DNA of 48,836 nt from Escherichia phage T1. Position numbers and translations under genes: made by a program. Location of the stretch: the sequence record NC_005833.1. One strand, written 5' to 3'. The notes beneath the pieces are model-generated. The model saw only the letters and a list, made by a program, of their open reading frames with translations, did not search any database and was not told the DNA's origin. Within the stretch, counting starts at the first letter, position 1; each line of letters starts with the position of its first letter. This document shows positions 30,378 through 48,836 of the stretch, one piece after another.

Positions 30378-31442
30378 ATGTTCCAGGTATTCACATCAAG
30401 CCAGCTTTCTAACGACGAGTATCATAGAAACGAAGGTTGGGCGTCAGAGTATGTAAGCGGATCGAGTCTTGCAGAAATTTATCAGACCTGCCCTGCTAAC
30501 TGGAGATTCAAGAAGAACGAGACAACGAAAGCTCTGGAGTTCGGTACTCAGTCGCACACCAACTTTGAGAGTCGAGATCTGTTTACTGCAACGTATGCTA
30601 GATGCCCTGCTCCGTCAGAGTTTAAGGATCTGATTACTTCGCAGGCGGCGCTGGCAGCAAAATTAAAATCATTCGGCCTGAAAGGTACATCCGGTAAGCA
30701 GTACCCGGACCTCATCAAAATGATGGTTGATTGTGGTGAAGAACTCAACGTTCAATACCTGATTGAACTGATCGCAGAAGCTGAGGCCCGTGCTGAAGGA
30801 AAACAACTTGTTGACGCGGACAAATACGACGCTTGCATGAAGATGAGAGCCATCCTTGAGCAGAATCCCGATCATGAAGCGTGCATCAACAGTGAAACGG
30901 CGCAGCGTGAGATTTCAATCTTCGGTGAGATATCCGGCGTAAAAGTTAAGGTTCGACTTGACCATCTGGACTACAAAGAGAATGTTCCAGGTCGTGTCCT
31001 GACTGGTTATGATGAGAATGGCGATCCGGTATTTGAAGACGTAATTTTCCCGGAAGCACTGATTATCACAGATTTCAAAACTACGATGAGCGCCAACCCG
31101 TTAGAGTTCCCGAGACTGGCATACAATCACGGCTATTACCTGAAGATGGCATTGCAGCATGACCTGCTACGACGCGCAATCCAGGCTGGAGCTTTTGAAG
31201 GTAACTTCCCGGAAGACATTCCGATCGTGGTTCGATTGCTTGCGCAGGAGAAAAAAGAGCCTTATATCGCACTGGCTTACCGTATGACTATGGAGCAAAT
31301 CAGGATAGGTCGTAACCAGTACATTAGCGTAGTCCACACTTACAAGGCTTGCTCTGAAATGGATGTTTGGCCTGGGTACGCTGGCGACGCAAGCGAGATC
31401 GAACTTGAAACGCCATCATGGGTGCGTTACCAAAATAAGTAA
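30378..31442 (+). CDS. PD-(D/E)XK-type exonuclease (recombination exonuclease)
   Basis: 354-aa ORF; IITDFKTT motif consistent with a D..(D/E)xK nuclease core; sigma70-like promoter 30319-30346; first gene of exo-annealase-SSB set. Confidence 0.55.
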   Translation: MFQVFTSSQLSNDEYHRNEGWASEYVSGSSLAEIYQTCPANWRFKKNETTKALEFGTQSHTNFESRDLFTATYARCPAPSEFKDLITSQAALAAKLKSFGLKGTSGKQYPDLIKMMVDCGEELNVQYLIELIAEAEARAEGKQLVDADKYDACMKMRAILEQNPDHEACINSETAQREISIFGEISGVKVKVRLDHLDYKENVPGRVLTGYDENGDPVFEDVIFPEALIITDFKTTMSANPLEFPRLAYNHGYYLKMALQHDLLRRAIQAGAFEGNFPEDIPIVVRLLAQEKKEPYIALAYRMTMEQIRIGRNQYISVVHTYKACSEMDVWPGYAGDASEIELETPSWVRYQNK

Positions 31443-31513
31443 ACGGCATAAATAGCTAAACAAATAATTAATGAGGTGTTATAATGCACCTCATACACCA
31501 ATCAGGAGAAGTT

Positions 31514-32164
31514 AAGATGCAATTATCACCAGAAACAAACGAAATCCTTCCCGCACTGTTCAATGCTCGCAATAAATTTGCTAAAGCAAAGAAGGACGCA
31601 AAAAACAATCACCTGAAAAATTCATACGCAACTCTTGATGCAATGATGGCTGCGGTTAGTCCGGCGCTAACCGACAACGATATTATGATCCTGCAATCAA
31701 TGCTGGACACCAGCACTGAAACAACCTTCCATCTTGAAACGATGCTGATTCACAAATCCGGGCAGTGGGCCAAATTCTTCATGATGATGCCGATTGCAAA
31801 GCGCGATCCGCAAGGCGTAGGTTCTGCAATGACGTATGCTCGACGTTACTCATTAGCCGCAGCGCTGGGGATTAGCCAGAGTGATGACGATGCTCAGCTT
31901 GCAGTGAAATCCGTCAAGGACTGGAAAAAAGAACTTGATGCGTGTGAAGACATCGAGTCACTGAAAGATGTATGGGCCAACGCTTACCGCCAGACTGACA
32001 CGGCGAGCAAGTCAATCATTCAGGATCACTACAACGCATTGAAGGCTAAATTTGAGATCGGTAAAGCTCGCGGCATTCGCCCGGCGCAACCGGAACAGAA
32101 AAAACAGGTTGAAGCAACAAGCGCGAAGCCTGTACAATCCCAATCAATCACCAACTTCGAATAA
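31514..32164 (+). CDS. single-strand annealing protein (Erf/RecT-like, positional)
   Basis: Track ORF 31484..32164; start refined to ATG 31514 after AGGAG; between exonuclease and SSB. Confidence 0.45.
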   Translation, partial: KMQLSPETNEILPALFNARNKFAKAKKDAKNNHLKNSYATLDAMMAAVSPALTDNDIMILQSMLDTSTETTFHLETMLIHKSGQWAKFFMMMPIAKRDPQGVGSAMTYARRYSLAAALGISQSDDDAQLAVKSVKDWKKELDACEDIESLKDVWANAYRQTDTASKSIIQDHYNALKAKFEIGKARGIRPAQPEQKKQVEATSAKPVQSQSITNFE

Positions 32165-32210: not shown

Positions 32211-32633
32211 ATGCATATTATCACTGGCGAGATCCGCAAAGAACCAAAGATTCTTGAACGTAACGGCGGCAATACTTATATTATCGAACTGGCAGAAAGC
32301 TATAAGCCTCGTGATGGCGATCGCGAATACACCAACTACACGTTCTTTTTTAGCGACGGTGGGAAGCCAGGCCTTGCTGACTGGTATCGTGAAGCGTTCC
32401 AAGTTGGTCGAGTTATCTCAGTATCGTGCGAGACGTTGAAGATCTCATCACGCGAACACAACGGAATGATTTACAATTCATTGCAGGCGGCTGACTTCCC
32501 TAAACTAGTATTTAGTCAACGAGGTCAAAGCAACCAGCAACAACGAGCGCCTCAGCAACAACAGCGTTCTCAGCAGCAATCACAACCACAACCAAATCAA
32601 CAATCAACATTTGACGACGATATTCCATTCTAA
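32211..32633 (+). CDS. ssb: single-stranded DNA-binding protein
   Basis: 140 aa; Gln-rich linker and C-terminal acidic tip ..FDDDIPF characteristic of bacterial-type SSB. Confidence 0.8.
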   Translation: MHIITGEIRKEPKILERNGGNTYIIELAESYKPRDGDREYTNYTFFFSDGGKPGLADWYREAFQVGRVISVSCETLKISSREHNGMIYNSLQAADFPKLVFSQRGQSNQQQRAPQQQQRSQQQSQPQPNQQSTFDDDIPF

Positions 32634-34960: not shown

Positions 34961-34983
34961 TAAAAAACCGCCCGAAGGCGGTT
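34961..34983 (-). terminator. rho-independent terminator of primase gene (reverse strand)
   Basis: AACCGCC cgaa GGCGGTT preceded on plus strand by A6 (T-run on reverse strand). Confidence 0.6.
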
Positions 34984-35917
34984 AGAGTAGGTCACTTGCT
35001 GAGAATAATTTGGCTTGCATTCCTGAGCGGTATCCTCCGGGATTCGGTATGATTATTTTTAATTGTCTGTCGTCTGCCATGTACAAGGTATCCTTGTCTG
35101 AAGGTTCACACGCCACCCTTACCTCTCGATCACCTTTATACCTGTATGCAACCATTTCGAGGTTTTCAGGGGTGAAGCAGGCCCATACCTCTTGCTTTGT
35201 GTGAAATGCAATATGCTGAGCATCAATCCAGTTAAGGCATAAGTAGATCGCCTTTTCAGTTTTACCAGTCACGGCAACCGAGCAACTCGTGTATTTCTTC
35301 GCATAAAATGACTCTCTTCCTTCTTCATCAATAATCAAAATATTGCAAAACTCATCATCAAGCCCATCCTCGTGCACAAGTTGACACGGTATAGTGTGAA
35401 ATACGCTCTCTCTTCCATCCTCGCTACGCTTTATACCGACATCGAATGATTCGGTGGGTAGTGACTCAAACACGCTCAACGGCGTATTTACACGTTTCTC
35501 TGTGCGCTCCATAACCTTCATCACCGCCTCATGTTCAGCCATCATGACATTGACACCTGACACCGGAGTCCGGCGCGCTTTCTTGTTTGCCTTGACGATG
35601 TATTCCTGCGGAACCTTTCCGAGAAATCTTCCCAGGATGTTTACGCATTCGCTGTACGGCATACCAGTCAACTTCATCAGCCAGCCAATACCAGAGTCGT
35701 TACCGCATGAGTTGCAGATCGCACCGCCGTCGCCCGGGGTGTTCAGGTTATCAGTCCAGCGAAATCGGTCTTTACCGCCGCAGTTGGGGCAGGGTTGGTG
35801 CTTCTTATTAAAAACATTATTCGGCAATCCGCAGATTGATTGGAAAGCCTCGCGCCATAACCCCTTCATGTACGGTAAAACGTCCTCTTTCTGAAACATC
35901 ATAAATTCTTCGTTCAC
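34982..35917 (-). CDS. DNA primase (zinc-ribbon type)
   Basis: CPNCGGKDRFRWTD..CNSCG zinc-binding motif as in phage primase-helicase zinc domains; own terminator 34961-34983. Confidence 0.55.
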   Translation of the reverse strand: MNEEFMMFQKEDVLPYMKGLWREAFQSICGLPNNVFNKKHQPCPNCGGKDRFRWTDNLNTPGDGGAICNSCGNDSGIGWLMKLTGMPYSECVNILGRFLGKVPQEYIVKANKKARRTPVSGVNVMMAEHEAVMKVMERTEKRVNTPLSVFESLPTESFDVGIKRSEDGRESVFHTIPCQLVHEDGLDDEFCNILIIDEEGRESFYAKKYTSCSVAVTGKTEKAIYLCLNWIDAQHIAFHTKQEVWACFTPENLEMVAYRYKGDREVRVACEPSDKDTLYMADDRQLKIIIPNPGGYRSGMQAKLFSASDLL

Positions 35918-36524: not shown

Positions 36525-38543
36525 GTGACAATGAACATTAAAAAACAGATTGCATTACTTGGCGATGACTATATAAAGAGAACTCAGGAGCGATTTACTG
36601 TTGGTGAGGTTGTTCCTTATCCGTACCAGGTTGTTGCTTATGCCGAGATCGCGAAACGCCTATCAAATTACGAGCATCCATTCTTCGTTAAAGCGTCTGT
36701 ATCCGCAGGTAAGACAATCATCTTCGCTATGGTGGCAAAGCAGTGTCAGAAAATGGGCTTAAAAATGCTTGTCCTGGCTCGTCAGGGTGAGATTGTCGAT
36801 CAGGATAGCGAAGAGATCGACAACTTCGGGGTAACGAACTCCATCTTCTCAGCGTCACTTGGAATCAAGTCCTGCTACTTCCCGATCGTGGTTGGCTCAG
36901 AGGGTACTGTTGCAAATGGCCTCGACAATGAGTTAGCTGATTTCGTCCCGCATGTAATTGGGATCGACGAATGTCACCAGGTGGATTGGGAAGACCTTGC
37001 GCAAGCCATCGAGGGTAAGGAAACAATGGAACAAATGAGGGGCGAGAAAGGGAAAATTATCATGGACGGAGATATTCCCCTGATTGGTAATGATGGAAAG
37101 CCTTTGCTTGGAACTAAGCGCAGTCAGTACACGATCGTAATCATGGAAATGATGCGGCGCTGTAAAAAGGTTCACGGTCACGATCTCAGAATATTTGGTA
37201 TGACTGGATCTGAATTTCGTGGCGTAGTTCCTATTCTGGTAGAGAATCCGAAAGCATTGGGATTCTGGCGTGAGCGAGTAACTGATATCGACACAAACTA
37301 TCTGATTGAGTTCGGCTCTGTCGTTCCGACTATATTCGGATCAACAGACGGAGTTCATTACGATCTTGATAAGTTCAAGGCGTCTAGCGAGGACGGAGTG
37401 CAGGACTTTACAGAGAAAGACATGAAGGCTATGGAAGATGAGATCCTTCATGATAAATCTCTGACTCAGCGAATCATGCAAATGGTCGCCAAAAAGGCAG
37501 AAGAACGCAATGCGGTCCTGATTACATGTGCTGGTGTGCGCCACTGCAAAGAGGCAGCGGCAGCACTTCCTCCGGGAAGCACCTATGCAATTATTACTGG
37601 CGACACAGACAACAAAGCGCGCAAGAAGATTCTTGACGATGTAAGGGCCGGAAAAATTAAATACACCTTTCAGGTAATGGCGCTCACTACTGGCGTTAAC
37701 GTTCCAAATTGGGATTTCAGTGTCATACTCCGCAAGATAGGATCGCTCACTCTGTTGATTCAACTTTTGGGTAGGGGTATGCGACTGCTTAAATCCTGGC
37801 AGGTTGCTGAAGGAATGGTTAAGCAGGACCATCTGGTATGGGATTTTGCAGGTACGATGGATGAGCTGGGTCAGCTTTATTTCGATCCGATACTTGAGCA
37901 GGCGCAATTCCAGAAGCGTTTTGAAAACGGCAAAGATCCGAAAACATGTCCGAAATGCGGTTGCGTAAATAGCTTCTATGCTCGACGATGCGTTAATGTC
38001 ATTGATGGTGAGCGTTGCGATCATTTCTGGACTTCTCAGATTTGTGAGGACCAGGTTGACGAGCGAACCGGGAAAATCCTTGTTAAAGGATGCGGTGCAG
38101 AGAATGACGTTGTTGCGCGAGTCTGTCGTTGTTGTGATGCTTCTCTTGTCGATCCTAACCTGAAGTTATCCGGTAAGGCGTACACCAAGAATGACTGGTA
38201 TGAAGTAAAGAATTTTGAGGTTACGCTAACCAAAAACCAGAAAGGCATAATATACAAATACACTCTGATTAACGACGATGGTGATGAGTTCAAGGCGTAT
38301 GAAAAATTCTTCCCCGAGTCTGACTCTAAGATTTGCGGTACGCTATGGAAAACTAAAGGTGTACTTCCTCATGTGTCAGATCCTAAAATGCGCCGCTACT
38401 TTATCGGAATGAAGAACGCCATCAAGATTTTGCAATACTCACATCATATTGCTCACCCGGTGCGCGTAACTCATCGTCGCAACCAGAAGAAAGAAGATAT
38501 CATCTCACGCAAAGACTTCGGTATGGAGGATATCCCGGAATGA
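36525..38543 (+). CDS. SF2 DNA helicase (DEAH-type) with C-terminal zinc-ribbon
   Basis: Walker A SVSAGKT, motif II IGIDECH; C-terminal CPKCGC..CRCCD cysteine clusters. Confidence 0.8.
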   Translation: MTMNIKKQIALLGDDYIKRTQERFTVGEVVPYPYQVVAYAEIAKRLSNYEHPFFVKASVSAGKTIIFAMVAKQCQKMGLKMLVLARQGEIVDQDSEEIDNFGVTNSIFSASLGIKSCYFPIVVGSEGTVANGLDNELADFVPHVIGIDECHQVDWEDLAQAIEGKETMEQMRGEKGKIIMDGDIPLIGNDGKPLLGTKRSQYTIVIMEMMRRCKKVHGHDLRIFGMTGSEFRGVVPILVENPKALGFWRERVTDIDTNYLIEFGSVVPTIFGSTDGVHYDLDKFKASSEDGVQDFTEKDMKAMEDEILHDKSLTQRIMQMVAKKAEERNAVLITCAGVRHCKEAAAALPPGSTYAIITGDTDNKARKKILDDVRAGKIKYTFQVMALTTGVNVPNWDFSVILRKIGSLTLLIQLLGRGMRLLKSWQVAEGMVKQDHLVWDFAGTMDELGQLYFDPILEQAQFQKRFENGKDPKTCPKCGCVNSFYARRCVNVIDGERCDHFWTSQICEDQVDERTGKILVKGCGAENDVVARVCRCCDASLVDPNLKLSGKAYTKNDWYEVKNFEVTLTKNQKGIIYKYTLINDDGDEFKAYEKFFPESDSKICGTLWKTKGVLPHVSDPKMRRYFIGMKNAIKILQYSHHIAHPVRVTHRRNQKKEDIISRKDFGMEDIPE

Positions 38544-39023: not shown

Positions 39024-39737
39024 ATGAAAGACTTTAATGATATCGAAACTATCGACTTTGCAGAAACTGGTTGCTCATTCACTCGCGAAGCAATAGCATC
39101 AGGCGGTTATTATCAGGCATTGAAAACGCCAACCTGTAAAGAGATTTCAGGGCGTCGATACAAGGGGACAAATACCCCTGACGCTGTTCGTGATTTATGG
39201 TCAACTCCGCGAGAGGTTATTGCATACCTTGAGGGTCGTTATGGGAAATATGATCTCGACGCTGCGGCAAGCGAAGAAAATAAAGTTTGCGAGAAGTTTT
39301 ACTCTCAGGAAACAAACTGCTTAAAACGTTGGTGGGGAAAGAATAAGCACGTTTGGTTAAATCCTCCTTATAGCCGACCTGATATATTTGTCAAGAAGGC
39401 CATTGAGCAAATGGAGCACAACAATCAGATCGATATGCTTTTACCTGCAGATAACTCTACTGCGTGGTTTACTGAAGCGCGGCAGAACGCAGCTGAAATA
39501 ATCTGGATTGAAGCGGACTTGACTGAGGATATTGACGGCAATGAATACGCACGATCCGGTCGCCTGGCTTTCATATCCGGTGAAACTGGAAAGGCCGTAG
39601 ACGGTAATAACAAAGGTTCGGTAATTTTTATTATGCGCGAACTTAAAGAAGGTGAGGTGCAACAGACTCACTACATCCCAATCACAAGCATTTGCCCTTC
39701 GGTGAAAAACAAACGAGCAAAGGTGAGGAAAGTATGA
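39024..39737 (+). CDS. dam: DNA N6-adenine methyltransferase (Dam-type)
   Basis: NPPY catalytic motif (WLNPPYS); size and context typical of phage Dam. Confidence 0.75.
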   Translation: MKDFNDIETIDFAETGCSFTREAIASGGYYQALKTPTCKEISGRRYKGTNTPDAVRDLWSTPREVIAYLEGRYGKYDLDAAASEENKVCEKFYSQETNCLKRWWGKNKHVWLNPPYSRPDIFVKKAIEQMEHNNQIDMLLPADNSTAWFTEARQNAAEIIWIEADLTEDIDGNEYARSGRLAFISGETGKAVDGNNKGSVIFIMRELKEGEVQQTHYIPITSICPSVKNKRAKVRKV

Positions 39738-43998: not shown

Positions 43999-44104
43999 GT
44001 ACCTTTTGACGTGAAGTAGCAACTCCCCATCCTGATCGCAAAGATTGTGCTCACCGTCGTTATTGGCCCTCATCGAAGTGAGCAGTAGGCTAAGTAATCC
44101 TTGC

Positions 44105-44512
44105 TCAAATTCTTCTTTCGTAAGCTGGAGCCTTGCGCACAATTCGACGTTCCGATCTATCAATGTTTCTACGTTCGCCAAACAAGTCTTCATCACTCAT
44201 TTCTCCAATGTGCATCATTTCCCACGTATATCGATTGTTGTAGCCATCAATACACATCAGCTTCATCATTACCGGGCGCTTGATCTTTCCCTTGCACCAG
44301 TAAAATCCACCCTTGCAATCAAGATAACCCTCAGTCACGCAGCGTGCGCAAAACTCCTTAGACAGCGCGCTTGTAAATTCACGGCGAGTCATTCCGGCGG
44401 CCTTAGCAAATCGCTCACTTTCCTTGTGGGCGTATATAAATTTCGCTATGTGCTGTCGAGTGTATTTGTCGTAACCTTCGCAGAACCTGAACAGATCTAA
44501 AAGAAGAAGCAT
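44105..44512 (-). CDS. hypothetical protein (135 aa)
   Basis: Track reverse ORF downstream of P-loop NTPase gene; Cys-rich. Confidence 0.4.
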   Translation of the reverse strand: MLLLLDLFRFCEGYDKYTRQHIAKFIYAHKESERFAKAAGMTRREFTSALSKEFCARCVTEGYLDCKGGFYWCKGKIKRPVMMKLMCIDGYNNRYTWEMMHIGEMSDEDLFGERRNIDRSERRIVRKAPAYERRI

Positions 44513-44516
44513 ATTA

Positions 44517-46085
44517 TTAACCCATCAGTCGAGGATTGATGAAAACAATATCATCAATCCGGCAAGTGTAGTTCATCTCTTCGAGCGTGATCAGCAGGCT
44601 GTCGATTCGCTCAGCTACTTTTTGTTGACCGTTGAACGGCGTAACGTTACGGCACTTTGCAACAATGCTATGAATAGGTGCGCGACCTTTGTTCTTCTTT
44701 GCGATCTCAGTGATAACATCAATCAGCTTACGAGATTCAGCCTCATCACCAGCATACCCGGCGGCGCTGGCAGACGACAGATAGGTTCTGGAAAGCTCAT
44801 TGAAAATCATGATCGCTTCCTGCATTGTTTCAAGGTCAATCTCACGGTTGGAACGGTTCGGTGATTCACCCTCCCAGTTCTTGATTGTGTGAAGAACTGA
44901 AGCAATGCGCAAAGCGTGCTTATCGAACTTGCCGAGATGACCGCGTAGCATTGAGTGAGAGTATTTGCCCCCGGCTGCGAAATCCGGCTCCATAGCCTGG
45001 CGAGCAAGGTTTAATTCACGCATAGCATTACGGCTTACAGAGAGAACAACGTTGTCCTCCTTCATAATGTTGTGCACAAGTCGATAATATTTACTCACCA
45101 ATCCTCGATCGACTTCCTTATACAGTGCATCACCATTTTCATCGCAAAGAATACGAGTGCCTAAAAGAGGTTCCTCGCGAACCAATAGGAAACGCTCAGA
45201 TACACCGATACCGCGCTGGCCTGCGTCCATGATACCCTTGATTGTTTCATCCTGCGCAATGACGCAGATCGAACCGACCGGGCAAAGAGATAAGTTATTG
45301 TCCTGATTTGAACGCGCAACCTCCATATGGTTTTTATCCCACGCCTTGAGGATAAGCTCGCTGTTTGATTTCTTATCAGAACCGCCATAAGTCAGGCCAA
45401 GCAATGTATTTATTGCCGTTGCCTCATCAGAGATTACGGAAAAGTGGCCTTGAACAGCAGCTACTTTCGCAAGACCTTCCGGTGTAGGATCTGATACCGC
45501 GAAAACAATATCAGCCATCTTCTTGATCTTCTCTTCCAGTTTTTCCTTGTCCTCGTACAGCGCCGCCGTCGTGTTACCCTTCGGATCGTTTTTGATTTCC
45601 TTCTCGATCTGACGTAGCTGACTGGTTAAACGGATACGTTCCTTTTTGCGCTCTTCATTCAGTCTCTGAATCTCTGCGCGCATAGGTGTAATCGCCGCTG
45701 AGTTAATCGCGGATTTACCTGTTGATGGTGGCTGGCTAATCACCATATAAAGAGCGGTCGGTTGTTCTTCTCCGTGATATTGCACCCAAAACTTCCCTAG
45801 CATCGCGGCTGAGATGCACCCAATGAAATGAGCGTACGCAGACGAAACAGGAAACTGTACAGACTCAGCTTTTGCTTTTGCATATTCGAATACCAGGTTA
45901 TCGCCACCTAACGAAATCAGCGGGAACTTATCGTTTCCACTGTTGATATCGATCGGGTCTTGCCAAAACGAAACTGAATCCCCGTAGCTGTTTTCACGAA
46001 TTGCGATCGCCACCGGATTAACTCCAGTGCTATTTGCGATCTCAATAATCTGTTGGTAATTCAGTTTTGGCTTAATATTAAACAT
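44517..46085 (-). CDS. P-loop NTPase (possible replication-associated ATPase)
   Basis: Track ORF 44517..46148; start refined to Met 46085 (ATG sharing one base with HNH stop); Walker A-like QPPSTGKS. Confidence 0.55.
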   Translation of the reverse strand: MFNIKPKLNYQQIIEIANSTGVNPVAIAIRENSYGDSVSFWQDPIDINSGNDKFPLISLGGDNLVFEYAKAKAESVQFPVSSAYAHFIGCISAAMLGKFWVQYHGEEQPTALYMVISQPPSTGKSAINSAAITPMRAEIQRLNEERKKERIRLTSQLRQIEKEIKNDPKGNTTAALYEDKEKLEEKIKKMADIVFAVSDPTPEGLAKVAAVQGHFSVISDEATAINTLLGLTYGGSDKKSNSELILKAWDKNHMEVARSNQDNNLSLCPVGSICVIAQDETIKGIMDAGQRGIGVSERFLLVREEPLLGTRILCDENGDALYKEVDRGLVSKYYRLVHNIMKEDNVVLSVSRNAMRELNLARQAMEPDFAAGGKYSHSMLRGHLGKFDKHALRIASVLHTIKNWEGESPNRSNREIDLETMQEAIMIFNELSRTYLSSASAAGYAGDEAESRKLIDVITEIAKKNKGRAPIHSIVAKCRNVTPFNGQQKVAERIDSLLITLEEMNYTCRIDDIVFINPRLMG

Positions 46086-46624
46086 CACAATAAACTCCTT
46101 AGTTGACGGCGTGAATGATACACCGTCAATGGTACACGCGTTTTGCAAAAAGTGCTATTCGATCCGTGATTCTCATGAAAACCGTATAGCCTTTCCGCTT
46201 CCTTCCTTGCTTTAGCCGCTGCATCCAGCGTCATGAAGGTCCCTAAGTGTTTTGTCTTTTTATTTATGGTTATGTTTGCCGTGTATCTATTTGTTTTTTT
46301 ATTCCAATACACTCCCATAACTCCTGTGTTTGATGACACTACTCCCTTGTTTCTTAGGTTGTCTTGCCTAGTTACTAGCCTGAGATTCTCAATTCTGTTA
46401 TCGTCTCTTTCATGGTTTATGTGGTCTACATCCATTCCTTCTGGTATGTTTCCGTAGTGTATTTTCCATACTATTCGATGGGCGTATTCAAATACACCTC
46501 CTGGAAAACATATTGACCGATAACCTTTTTTATTAACAGTTCCGGCAAGTAGATTTCGTCTTCTTCCGATTCTCCACTCTTTCCAGTACAGTCTCCCGCT
46601 AACGTATTTCAGTTCATCTTTCAT
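46085..46624 (-). CDS. HNH homing endonuclease with AP2-like domain
   Basis: GNIPEGMDVDHINHERDDNRIENL core; AGA/ATA-rich codons; last 25 codons read through a box-hairpin element. Confidence 0.75.
   Translation of the reverse strand: MKDELKYVSGRLYWKEWRIGRRRNLLAGTVNKKGYRSICFPGGVFEYAHRIVWKIHYGNIPEGMDVDHINHERDDNRIENLRLVTRQDNLRNKGVVSSNTGVMGVYWNKKTNRYTANITINKKTKHLGTFMTLDAAAKARKEAERLYGFHENHGSNSTFCKTRVPLTVYHSRRQLRSLL
46100..46160 (-). promoter_or_regulatory. conserved box-hairpin element, reverse strand, inside 3' end of HNH ORF
   Basis: Reverse complement reads ATAGCACTTTTTGCAAAA, 22 nt, TATCAT, then RBS and ATG of P-loop NTPase gene. Confidence 0.55.
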
Positions 46625-47037
46625 AAGTATTTACTCTCAAAGGTTGTGCCGTCTGCGATACTAAAACCAACCTCTTCGCGGAATAAGGTCCAGCGGCAAC
46701 CGTCCTCATCAAAGATGTAACCAGCTACGCCTCCAAGAGCGCGACCGCTTTCTACCTGGTAACGCTTTCCAACCTTGAATGATTTTTTCATTGGGTTGCG
46801 ATGGTCAAGTCCGGTGCACTTGAGCGTCTTTGTTTTCAACTCGGTGAACTTCGCGAAGAAGATTTCATCAGATCCGTGAATATGTAATTCATCATGCTTT
46901 TCAAGTTTTAAATACTTCCCGCATTTTAACTTTACTTCACGAGTATCATCATAGCGCTCACGACCTTTGTACAGATTGTTTACTTCGAATCCTGTGATTT
47001 TGTCTGCGGAAGTGCATTTAAGTTTGATTGATTTCAT
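46621..47037 (-). CDS. hypothetical protein (138 aa)
   Basis: Track reverse ORF downstream of reverse-oriented box element. Confidence 0.45.
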   Translation of the reverse strand: MKSIKLKCTSADKITGFEVNNLYKGRERYDDTREVKLKCGKYLKLEKHDELHIHGSDEIFFAKFTELKTKTLKCTGLDHRNPMKKSFKVGKRYQVESGRALGGVAGYIFDEDGCRWTLFREEVGFSIADGTTFESKYL

Positions 47038-47059
47038 TGTGTTCGCTCCTGATTGGTTA

Positions 47060-47117
47060 TCTTGAATAAGGCCACTTTATCAAATGACCTTACGGCAATA
47101 TTAACAAATCGTGCTAT
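47060..47117 (-). promoter_or_regulatory. conserved box-hairpin element, reverse strand
   Basis: Reverse complement reads ATAGCACGATTTGTTAA, 22 nt, TAAAGT, with AAGGTCA / TGGCCTT arms. Confidence 0.55.
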
Positions 47118-47327
47118 TTACCAGGGAATATAATCGTCAACGTCCTCATTAATATCATCACCGGGTAACTCAAAGTTAGGATCGTATTCGCTTTCAGCAT
47201 CCATATCCATATCACCAAGAGCCTCGTCAAGTGTGATTTCTTTATATGCTACCTTGATGCACCATTCGGAACTAAGTCCGGCATCAAGCGCTGCAAAATA
47301 ACGAGTCCAGAAATTATCTTGTTCCAT
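47118..47327 (-). CDS. small acidic protein with SSB C-terminal-tail-like tip (..DVDDYIPW)
   Basis: 69 aa, highly acidic C-terminal half; last residues resemble this phage's SSB tail ..FDDDIPF. Confidence 0.5.
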   Translation of the reverse strand: MEQDNFWTRYFAALDAGLSSEWCIKVAYKEITLDEALGDMDMDAESEYDPNFELPGDDINEDVDDYIPW

Positions 47328-47330
47328 TAA

Positions 47331-47555
47331 TTAGCCCCACGAATTAATGTAAATCGAGTTAGCCTCAAGCGTTGCACGAACATCCGCATCTGTTGCATTT
47401 ATCAGTCGAGAGCCTGGCACGCTTCCGATAACACTATTTCCGTTACGCGTCTTAGTTACCGTCATTGAAATAAAGCCTGAAGACTTATCCATCTTGATAA
47501 ATACACGGCCTTTTGCGTTCAGGTGCTTGATGATATTCTCAACTTTAATGCTCAT
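47331..47555 (-). CDS. hypothetical protein (74 aa)
   Basis: Track ORF 47331..47639; start refined to Met 47555 after AAGGAA, so upstream box element stays intergenic. Confidence 0.4.
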   Translation of the reverse strand: MSIKVENIIKHLNAKGRVFIKMDKSSGFISMTVTKTRNGNSVIGSVPGSRLINATDADVRATLEANSIYINSWG

Positions 47556-47574
47556 TTTTGATTCCTTTGTTTTG

Positions 47575-47633
47575 TTTGGTATGGGAGTAATATACCTTAC
47601 TCCCCGATGTGTGTCTTTAGCAATTTGTGCTAT
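47575..47633 (-). promoter_or_regulatory. conserved box-hairpin element, reverse strand
   Basis: Reverse complement reads ATAGCACAAATTGCTAAAG, 22-23 nt, (G)TATAT(T), GGGGAGTA / TACTCCC arms. Confidence 0.55.
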
Positions 47634-47772
47634 CAGCACTCAGAAATTACTTTACACTCTTTGATCGTGCCGCCGAGAACTACCTTTTGCATCATTGCTT
47701 TTTGGCGACTATCGTAAACGCGAACATTTTTTACGCTGTTAAACTTTCCTGTATAGAAAGTGTGAACATAAA

Positions 47773-48093
47773 TCATTTTTTACCGTCCCATGTTTGATAT
47801 GCCGTAACCAGGTTAATGCTATGGTCGAACTCGTCAACGCTAAGCGATCCGATTCTAACAAGCTCTTTGTTGTGCTTAATGTCAACCATCCGGCTATATG
47901 GATGACCTGGCGCGTATTTAAATAGACGCTTGCTGTCGGCAATGTCTGCGTTAATTCCGTAGAATCGGCCTACTGCCGCCTTAACGCGCTCCATGATGTT
48001 TTTTTCGTGGATTGCCGCCGCGTTATTTAGTGCCGCAACCGTACTTCCGTTAATCTTCGGTGACTTCGTTGTGATTTTGTAAGTGTGGTTCAT
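47773..48093 (-). CDS. hypothetical protein (106 aa)
   Basis: Track ORF 47773..48159; start refined to Met 48093 after GGGGGA. Confidence 0.4.
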   Translation of the reverse strand: MNHTYKITTKSPKINGSTVAALNNAAAIHEKNIMERVKAAVGRFYGINADIADSKRLFKYAPGHPYSRMVDIKHNKELVRIGSLSVDEFDHSINLVTAYQTWDGKK

Positions 48094-48109
48094 TATTCCC
48101 CCTAACCAG

Positions 48110-48328
48110 TCAGGATAGCTTTCTAGCTTCATCAATGATAACAGGTTCGAGACGCTCAAGTCGAACGCGGAACGTGTTCATAAATCCCTCGTTATTCTTC
48201 AATAACTCGAAGGCGTCCGTAGCTTCAATGGCGCTACTACCCATGTAAGCGATTACGCGCTTCTGTGTTTTTCGTGAGATCGCCACTACGCGGTAAATAT
48301 TATCACTCATACAATGCCTCCTTAACAC
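48110..48328 (-). CDS. hypothetical protein (72 aa)
   Basis: Track reverse ORF in leftward operon. Confidence 0.4.
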   Translation of the reverse strand: MLRRHCMSDNIYRVVAISRKTQKRVIAYMGSSAIEATDAFELLKNNEGFMNTFRVRLERLEPVIIDEARKLS

Positions 48329-48674
48329 GATCCGCTACGAATGAGTTAACGGTGATTGAATAGTCAGCCACGAAGCAAGGAGCAACACTGCCTGGCTCAG
48401 TGCGCATGAATGGTTTATTGAACTGAGTGATTACCTCGCCAGTATCGTTATCAATTAAGCGAGACGCGCCTAAGCGGTCCACCACGCGCGTTACGCGGTC
48501 CACGCACTCCATTACATCACTTACGTCATAATAGGCGGTTAGAGCGGCTATCATTGCCTTCTCTTGCTTGTTGTGAATCTTACGCGCAATGTTCTCTATC
48601 GCAACGTGCACTTTCTCGTCAGTCTGGATTACCGAGCTGGCTGAGAAGTCCAGATCTGTGAACTGCTTAAACAT
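48303..48674 (-). CDS. hypothetical protein (123 aa), first gene of leftward operon
   Basis: Track reverse ORF; GAGGAAAG RBS; preceded by box element 48690-48751. Confidence 0.45.
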   Translation of the reverse strand: MFKQFTDLDFSASSVIQTDEKVHVAIENIARKIHNKQEKAMIAALTAYYDVSDVMECVDRVTRVVDRLGASRLIDNDTGEVITQFNKPFMRTEPGSVAPCFVADYSITVNSFVADRVKEALYE

Positions 48675-48689
48675 AATACTTTCCTCGTT

Positions 48690-48751
48690 TACTGTTGATG
48701 TGATGAATCATACCCAGTAGACATGGATAAGTCGTTAGCAAAAAATGCTAT
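48690..48751 (-). promoter_or_regulatory. conserved box element, reverse strand, upstream of first leftward gene
   Basis: Reverse complement reads ATAGCATTTTTTGCTAA, 22 nt, GTATGA. Confidence 0.5.
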
Positions 48752-48836
48752 TCCAATAATTGCTCATTATTCCATCAATACTGGAATATCTGGAATAATC
48801 ACGATCATGATTGATCTCTAATGATGAGATGTGATT

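Follow-up and report, generated by a model that had tools for sequence, protein, structure and literature searches.

Why should a protein of 69 amino acids, encoded among the small genes at the right end of a phage genome, carry the same kind of C-terminal ending as an SSB, a protein that binds single-stranded DNA? The question is raised by Escherichia phage T1 (sequence record NC_005833.1), of which the whole stretch of 48,836 nucleotides was analysed and is referred to below as the window. The translated product of 47118..47327 on the minus strand (MEQDNFWTRYFAALDAGLSSEWCIKVAYKEITLDEALGDMDMDAESEYDPNFELPGDDINEDVDDYIPW) terminates in EDVDDYIPW, and the T1 SSB, whose FDDDIPF ending had been pointed out in an earlier note made from the letters of this DNA, indeed terminates in QQSTFDDDIPF. 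Mimicry of the SSB C-terminal tail (SSB-Ct) is the best, if tentative, reading of the smaller protein, SSB-Ct being the known motif that its ending matches best. It is quite possible, though far from assured, that the protein consists of a head and a flexible acidic tail whose tip imitates SSB-Ct. That this tip docks in an SSB-Ct pocket is put forward with similar caution. The features concerned are as follows.

47118..47327, minus strand: coding sequence (CDS) of the 69-amino-acid protein, with its ATG at 47327..47325 and its TAA stop at 47120..47118
47190..47327, minus strand: head, residues 1-46, a predicted three-helix domain whose closing block TLDEALGDMDMDAES is the most conserved of the family
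47133..47189, minus strand: linker, residues 47-65 (EYDPNFELPGDDINEDVDD), an acidic, variable stretch for which disorder is predicted
47121..47132, minus strand: tip, residues 66-69, YIPW, a hydrophobic-Pro-aromatic sequence at the extreme C-terminus
32211..32633, plus strand: T1 SSB, identified by PHROG 44 'single strand DNA binding protein' (E 8.6e-24) and by its GenBank note

The 69-amino-acid gene is real. It is annotated in GenBank as a CDS ('hypothetical protein', QEG04393.1), its ATG stands 3 nucleotides past the TAA of an upstream 74-amino-acid gene, a GGGG run resembling a Shine-Dalgarno sequence lies 7 nucleotides ahead of this ATG, and the frame is intact at 14 of 16 loci from IMG/VR, where the codons of the tip vary synonymously (TAT or TAC for Y66, ATT or ATA for I67, and CCC, CCT or CCG for P68). 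The earlier note had placed the open reading frame (ORF) correctly but had omitted its strand, which is the minus strand, the plus-strand frame being interrupted by stops. The product, a small early protein of T1, contains 20 D/E vs 3 K/R. The strong acidity that had been ascribed to its C-terminal half is borne out, as residues 34-69 comprise 15 D/E and no K/R; the last 24 residues hold 9 D/E. Shortened or frameshifted copies of the gene, encoding 43 and 28 amino acids, can be found in IMG/VR at L021 977-1183 (vB_SsoS_008-like) and L032 3001-3208 (DELF2-like), respectively. Listed beside these copies are P0064 and P0063, the latter (98 amino acids) being a read-through fusion to the upstream gene.

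The ending and its conservation

Endings of this type are rare. Among the 857 ORFs of T1 (stop-to-stop, at least 30 codons, six frames, whole window), only the SSB and the 69-amino-acid protein have a P[FWY] C-terminus. Likewise, the strict hydrophobic-P-[FW] ending is found in only two of the 895 ORFs of phage atuna, namely its SSB (…DFDDDIPF) and its small protein (…CPRCFPF). Such rarity in both genomes indicates that the SSB-like ending is not a chance feature. In the T1 SSB itself, which has no Pfam match at E<=1e-3 and whose OB domain appears highly divergent, the FDDDIPF tip is preceded by a Q-rich linker. The 76 annotated CDSs of T1 include a primase (34982-35917), two helicases (36525-38543 and 44517-46148), an ERF annealase (31484-32164) and a PDDEXK exonuclease (30378-31442), and no DNA polymerase is present among them. 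Considering that the phage combines an SSB tip of the host type with the lack of a polymerase of its own, SSB-Ct contacts with host proteins are plausibly important to its replication and recombination.

Judging from profile matches, the 69-amino-acid protein is a member of an uncharacterised family, PHROG 9085/9323, that is spread over the Drexlerviridae. PHROG 9085 matches it over its full length (its residues 1-69 align to positions 1-69 of the 69-position profile, E 1.1e-45), while PHROG 9323 (E 3.2e-23) and PHROG 4823 (E 8.8e-07) match only residues 1-47 and 9-49, respectively, and all three are of 'unknown function'. An initial search gave 64 close homologs. With tblastn, 699 of 50,697 phage records were matched, 83 of them with at least 80% query coverage and the rest over the N-terminal ~46 residues only. 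When 1.84 billion cluster representatives were searched with a profile, 34 proteins came up, 23 of which are small and full-length and less than 50% identical pairwise, and a second profile search enlarged the relatives to 163 proteins, including 151 small members. Searches for known domains and folds gave little: for the 69-amino-acid protein, nothing exceeded the threshold in Pfam (SbcC_Walker_B reached 15.7 bits vs a 27-bit cutoff), a profile search of PDB sequences with the family gave nothing below E 0.078, and Foldseek with the predicted fold gave nothing below E 5 in PDB and only uncharacterised family members in BFVD. In the library of papers that was searched, literal searches with the tip sequences included, and in a preprint on phage accessory genes, nothing was found on the T1 protein, its family, its motifs or a natural free-standing SSB-Ct mimic.

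A hydrophobic-P-F/W ending is present in ~150 of the 163 relatives, including those whose tails cannot be aligned, and the exceptions are shortened or frameshifted fragments or have different, long architectures. Terminal P[FW] is found in 146 of the 151 small members; four others carry one residue more (PFW, PFL) and one ends in ISF. In these 146 proteins, Pro occupies position -2 without exception, the last residue is F (78) or W (68, T1 having W as well), and I (82), F (59), L (3), V (1) or E (1) stands at -3. Counted as whole tips, the small members display IPW (69), FPF (59), IPF (14), LPF (3) and PFW (3), plus VPF and EPF. The most common tip among the 23 diverse representatives is IPF (11), the others being IPW (4), IPFW (2), LPF (2), FPF, VPF and EPF (one each) and ISF (1). 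In a clean alignment of 23 Tunavirus-type homologs, Y66, I67, P68 and W69 never change, in contrast to residues 53-64, which vary freely. Given that the Pro is invariant, that the tip is common to unalignable tails and that its codons vary synonymously, the tip is, on these comparative grounds, a C-terminal linear motif under strong purifying selection. Its retention in ~150 relatives makes it probable that the tip engages DNA-handling machinery of the host or of the phage.

The residues that lead up to the tip are more diverse. The tails of ETEP102 and P0066 end in …LKFDDGIPF, that of CRES7 in …CCECMPF, those of F115, atuna, K50 and LL5 in …C(K/P)RCFPF, and those of Klebsiella and Yersinia phages in …CRECIPFW. 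In members of the acidic type, an aromatic residue often stands 6-8 positions ahead of the end, as it does in DFDDDIPF. The sole full-length small member that does not have Pro at -2 is P0083 (89 amino acids, on a 1.6-kb contig), which ends in …CKDEISF; its Pro-to-Ser replacement is also that of the classical ssb-113 mutation (P176S) in E. coli SSB. By the earlier note, homologs without the acidic-IP-aromatic ending would refute its hypothesis. The IP-aromatic part is clearly kept throughout most of the family but the acidic part is not, since about half of the members carry a Cys knuckle ahead of the tip and K/R at -5/-6, which speaks against a generic electrostatic decoy for SSB-Ct in that half. 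No simple covariation between the tip of the SSB and that of the small protein is apparent, as DDDIPF in the former accompanies FPF in the latter in phage atuna; the metagenomic contigs with LPF/VPF members (1.3-5.8 kb) carry no SSB gene.

Head, tail and their exchange

Structure prediction, which had been suggested in the earlier note as a check, gave a folded three-helix head followed by an unstructured tail. With two different alignments, AF2 placed helices at residues 6-16, 20-27 and 33-38 (pLDDT 75-87), and left residues 45-69 without secondary structure (pLDDT 53-60) and without confident docking of the tip on the head. The protein is predicted on this basis to be composed of a small folded head, a flexible tail and the conserved tip. 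Across the family, the head comprises ~46 residues and closes with ALGDMDMDxES, after which the variable tail begins. Residues A13, G17, V26, L33, A36, L37, G38 and E45 of the head are invariant among 26 diverse members. The linker between head and tip measures from 25 to 57 residues in the family, and many replacements and in-frame indels make its positions 53-64 highly variable at the 16 IMG/VR loci.

Two types of tail can be found among the 151 small members. The Cys-free tails (74 members) are strongly acidic, with a mean net charge of -10 (range -14 to -6), while the other 77 tails harbor a CxC…CxxC knuckle that abuts the tip and have a mean net charge of -4 (range -9 to -1). In the knuckle type, the residues before the tip are C at -4, R at -5 and K, A or P at -6, as in …CKRCFPF. 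Both types can be found behind closely related heads. On two short metagenomic contigs, for which assembly chimeras are possible, the head and the tail have different closest relatives (the comparison being made with L007 and L002): P0060 (879-bp contig) has a head 96% identical to that of Klebsiella phage 066039 together with a tail 91% identical to that of T1 and 22% to that of 066039, and P0054 (2960-bp contig) has a head 83% identical to that of ETEP102 together with a tail 96% identical to that of T1. The junction of the exchange is the most conserved block, TL(D/E)xALGDMDMDxES. The presence of acidic-IPW and Cys-knuckle-IPFW tails on nearly identical heads suggests that the tails are interchangeable modules sharing the tip.

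The head with its ALGDMDMDxE block can also be found inside longer proteins that do not have the tip (Vi01_187c, KZag1, P0079, P0087, P0088, P0095). Unlike the T1 protein, the long forms of the Ackermannviridae (PHROG 4823-type, 160-190 amino acids) exhibit an extra N-terminal domain of ~80 amino acids and an acidic C-terminal region without the tip. In other forms, of 217-309 amino acids, the N-terminus resembles a coiled coil and the C-terminal part carries a CPAC…CPAC zinc ribbon, again without the tip. Two examples of long forms are the following.

L010 1240-1719: Salmonella phage Vi01_187c
L009 1225-1800: Klebsiella phage KZag1

What the tip may bind

If the tip imitates SSB-Ct, its terminal aromatic and free carboxylate, presented by the invariant Pro, would insert into the hydrophobic, Arg-lined pocket that receives SSB-Ct. 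Candidate receptors can be proposed on the side of the host, namely ExoI, RecJ, RecQ, RecO, PriA, DnaG and the chi subunit of Pol III, as well as on the side of the phage, among the recombination and replication proteins of T1 itself. The head would provide a second contact. As an outcome, either SSB would be competitively excluded from the receptor, the small protein acting as a decoy, or the receptor would be recruited to whatever the head binds, the small protein acting as an adaptor; the adaptor role fits the data as well as the decoy role. We infer from sequence both that the receptor would be an SSB-Ct pocket and which partner would carry it.

Several observations argue for such mimicry. 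The tip matches the core of SSB-Ct at the extreme C-terminus, and in T1 and atuna only the SSB shares this ending. The placement of an unstructured tail behind a folded head follows the linker-plus-tip logic of SSB. Near-copies of the SSB tail can be found within the family, as the …LKFDDGIPF tails compare closely with …STFDDDIPF in the T1 SSB; the tail of E. coli SSB reads …MDFDDDIPF. In addition, what the family tolerates (a variable aliphatic, a fixed Pro and a larger aromatic) parallels the results of SSB-Ct peptide scans on ExoI and RecO. In such a scan, where the wild-type peptide had a half-maximal inhibitory concentration (IC50) of ~4.5 µM, replacement of Ile by Leu or norleucine was tolerated or better (0.92 µM for Leu on ExoI), nearly every replacement of Pro was detrimental on ExoI and RecO, and 4-CF3-Phe or 3-Cl-Phe in the last position gave 0.36-0.39 µM, an increase in affinity of ~10-fold, Trp not being among the residues scanned (PMC10143822). 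As regards other phages, the C-terminal domain of lambda Red-beta reads SSB-Ct and lambda Orf binds SSB (PMC6393309).

The likeness to SSB is confined to the tail. Like the 69-amino-acid protein, the SSBs of E. coli and T1 have an unstructured acidic tail with a terminal aliphatic-Pro-aromatic sequence, in which the Pro is invariant and I or L is tolerated. Unlike SSB, however, the 69-amino-acid protein has no OB fold, AF2 giving three short helices and no strands, and no predicted binding to single-stranded DNA. It matches neither the SSB family of Pfam nor PHROG 44, and its head has an isoelectric point of 4.5. The tail differs as well, with Trp in the last position and Tyr at -4 in T1 (Y/D/D at -4/-5/-6, vs the acidic run of SSB-Ct), and with a Cys knuckle and basic residues in half of the family. 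At least 17 genome-maintenance proteins of E. coli are described as partners that SSB-Ct recruits by docking (PMC7145534). Synthetic peptide mimetics of SSB-Ct and small-molecule inhibitors of SSB-partner interactions exist (PMC10143822; PMC5872125). The mimetics resemble the mode proposed for the T1 protein in that a free tip occupies the IPF pocket and in that a bulkier last aromatic is analogous to the change from Phe to Trp, but they are man-made. A natural system with some resemblance is provided by phage T7, where gp2.5 (an SSB) and gp4 (a helicase-primase) both have acidic tails ending in Phe and a common docking partner. There, too, one phage displays the same type of acidic, aromatic-ended tail on two proteins, and the tails compete or hand off. 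In contrast to what is proposed here, the receptor is the DNA polymerase of T7 itself and the carriers are large enzymes, whereas the carrier in T1 has 69 amino acids and no enzymatic domain.

Other observations weigh against the mimicry of SSB-Ct. T1 ends in Trp where SSB-Ct has Phe, and to our knowledge Phe is the last residue of every known SSB. The FPF/Cys-knuckle half of the family, with K/R at -5/-6, has little net charge; in SSB-Ct, it is the DDD that is read by the basic ridge of the binding sites. In the four members ending in IPFW/VPFL, the alpha-carboxylate that SSB-Ct pockets recognise would be displaced. Competition would also arise between a free decoy and the tail of the phage's own SSB and, since tip peptides bind only at micromolar concentrations, a monovalent decoy would need either a high concentration or a second contact. 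Finally, the shortened copies in L021 and L032, if they are not due to sequencing errors, suggest that the gene may be dispensable in culture. Taken as they are, these points make a general decoy less likely than an adaptor role or a specific, bivalent contact of head and tip with a single partner. The tip-less long form Vi01_187c lies three genes from polA, and the Ackermannviridae encode their own polymerase. The association of tip-less forms with an own polymerase, vs that of the tip with its absence in T1-like phages, fits an adaptor role weakly, as it is essentially a contrast between lineages that counts once.

A genuine C-terminal docking motif could also have a receptor outside the SSB interactome, for instance a hub protein of the host, the protein encoded by the upstream 74-amino-acid gene (PHROG 4344) or the DUF3987 helicase of the same gene block, in which case the likeness to SSB-Ct would be convergent or coincidental. 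Although rather unlikely, this explanation accounts for much of what has just been described, including the non-acidic, Zn-knuckle context of the tip in half of the family with K/R beside it, the Trp of T1 and the IPFW/VPFL endings, which are less SSB-Ct-like, and it is consistent with the conserved gene order that links the family gene to PHROG 4344 and to the DUF3987 helicase. What it leaves without explanation is that the motif is placed at the very C-terminus in 146 of the 151 small members, which is a hallmark of SSB-Ct, that …KFDDGIPF is nearly identical to SSB-Ct and that the pattern of tolerance matches the SSB-Ct scans. As a variant of the same explanation, the tip could mimic the C-terminal peptide of FtsZ (DYLDIPAFL) and titrate FtsA or ZipA, so that cell division would be blocked. 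While D-Y…I-P…aromatic is indeed common to this peptide and to DDYIPW, the FtsZ motif lies internally and follows an IPxF spacing, and in no member of the family are the P and the aromatic set apart by a residue. Three further motifs were considered and set aside because of a sequence misfit or the lack of a signal peptide, namely the beta-clamp motif (QL[SD]LF), an ssrA-like degron and the DegS 'YxF' ligand.

It is less probable still that the tip has a structural role, whether by folding back on the head or the Zn knuckle, as part of a core or in auto-inhibition, or by mediating homo-oligomerisation. An aromatic residue and a Pro could cap a small helical bundle, the head has conserved hydrophobic positions and, in members of the Cys type, the tip comes directly after the final knuckle Cys. 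However, AF2 leaves residues 45-69 unstructured with no confident docking, the linker varies between 25 and 57 residues with in-frame indels, heads can be found in longer proteins that have no tip, and heads with no more than 57-65% identity have swapped their tails.

The earlier note had also raised the possibility of a DNA-mimic-like decoy, and a DNA mimic of the Ocr, ArdA or Gp5.9 type could act early in infection against restriction enzymes or RecBCD. T7 Ocr and T7 Gp5.9 are small, very acidic, early phage proteins with rigid folds that mimic duplex DNA against host DNA enzymes. The excess of 20 D/E over 3 K/R in the T1 protein would suit such a role, as would the presence, in most relatives, of a block of small genes that holds a DNA methyltransferase directly downstream. 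Unlike in Ocr and Gp5.9, however, the charge is carried by a tail predicted to be disordered rather than by a rigid surface, it is not conserved in the family (~-4 in the Cys-type tails, where it is the tip that is conserved), and no similarity in sequence or fold was found, neither Pfam, PDB sequences nor Foldseek giving a match to a known family or fold. As a role for the whole family, DNA mimicry is unlikely, since it is the tip and not the strong acidity that is conserved, and for the T1 protein it is regarded as very improbable. That the ending arose by chance on a fast-evolving accessory ORF and has no specific role is barely credible, for although the motif is only 3-4 residues long and the gene is shortened in two sequenced relatives, Pro (146 of 146) and a terminal aromatic are always retained despite tail identities down to ~20%, with synonymous changes in the tip codons, and only 2 of the 857 T1 ORFs end in this way.

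Genome neighbourhood and meaning

The 69-amino-acid gene belongs to a leftward block (48674-44105) at the right end of the genome. Most genes of this block are small, and its last one encodes the DUF3987/PHROG 2373 'DNA helicase'. The following genes of the block are of note as neighbours of the 69-amino-acid gene.

47331..47555, minus strand: upstream 74-amino-acid gene, PHROG 4344, without functional annotation, syntenic partner of the family gene
46085-46624, minus strand: HNH_3 + AP2 homing-endonuclease gene, flanked by the DUF3987 helicase gene and a 138-amino-acid gene of PHROG 2684
44517..46148, minus strand: DUF3987/PHROG 2373 'DNA helicase', with the ORF start at TTG 46148 and a later CDS start in GenBank

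Orthologs of the PHROG 4344 protein are encoded directly upstream of the family gene in ETEP102, F115, K50, LL5 and L013, with one gap in YP10S2; in atuna, the ortholog lies two genes upstream. The automatic ORF call for the 74-amino-acid gene extends to a GTG at 47639 (102 amino acids), while the conserved protein begins at the ATG (MSIKVENI…). On the metagenomic contig L013, genes for a 72-amino-acid protein, the family member, a 143-amino-acid protein and DUF3987 follow each other, and the order is alike in phage atuna. Synteny of the family gene with the DUF3987 helicase is kept even in distant metagenomic relatives. Instead of the homing-endonuclease gene of T1, most other Drexlerviridae have a DNA methyltransferase gene directly downstream of the family gene; the sole annotated methylase of T1 is Dam (39024-39737). 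Scanning of 44000-48836 for promoters and terminators gave nothing better than shuffled sequence, and Rfam and tRNA scans of the whole window gave no matches.

It was considered whether the upstream 74-amino-acid protein corresponds, as in a 'Rosetta stone' link, to the N-terminal domain that the long forms of the Ackermannviridae have in addition; with an hhalign probability of 0.9%, this idea was rejected. Fusions of the upstream gene and the family member are annotated in N5822 and P0063, and look like frameshifts or misannotation. The former record (L008, Enterobacter phage N5822, MW032452) describes a 78-kb 'circular' genome with 216 features, in which two places match the query and a fusion of 168 amino acids is annotated; it looks misassembled or duplicated.

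With regard to what such a protein would mean for these phages, the Drexlerviridae may possess, on what can so far be regarded as a possible rather than a probable view, a widespread, hitherto unrecognised class of free-standing 'SSB-tail' proteins, each made of a tiny head and a swappable tail whose tip would enter SSB-Ct pockets. If this is true, phages without a polymerase would take control of the SSB interactome of their host. SSB-stimulated ExoI, RecJ and RecQ would be shut out of the recombination and replication intermediates of the phage or, alternatively, host Pol III (via chi) or DnaG would be tethered to the phage helicase or primase. Either outcome could help explain how T1-like phages are linked to the host replisome or how their recombination intermediates are protected. 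An SSB-Ct motif on a non-SSB scaffold would then represent a new viral rewiring of the SSB hub and the first natural protein to act as an inhibitor or adaptor on the SSB-partner interface, an antibiotic target under pursuit, and it would be available as a ready-made probe or inhibitor. The natural variants, in which acidic or Zn-knuckle tails bear IPW, IPF, FPF or IPFW tips, lend themselves to structure-activity comparison. Should the receptor not be an SSB-Ct pocket, the family would still exhibit a strongly selected C-terminal docking motif in a very common group of coliphages.

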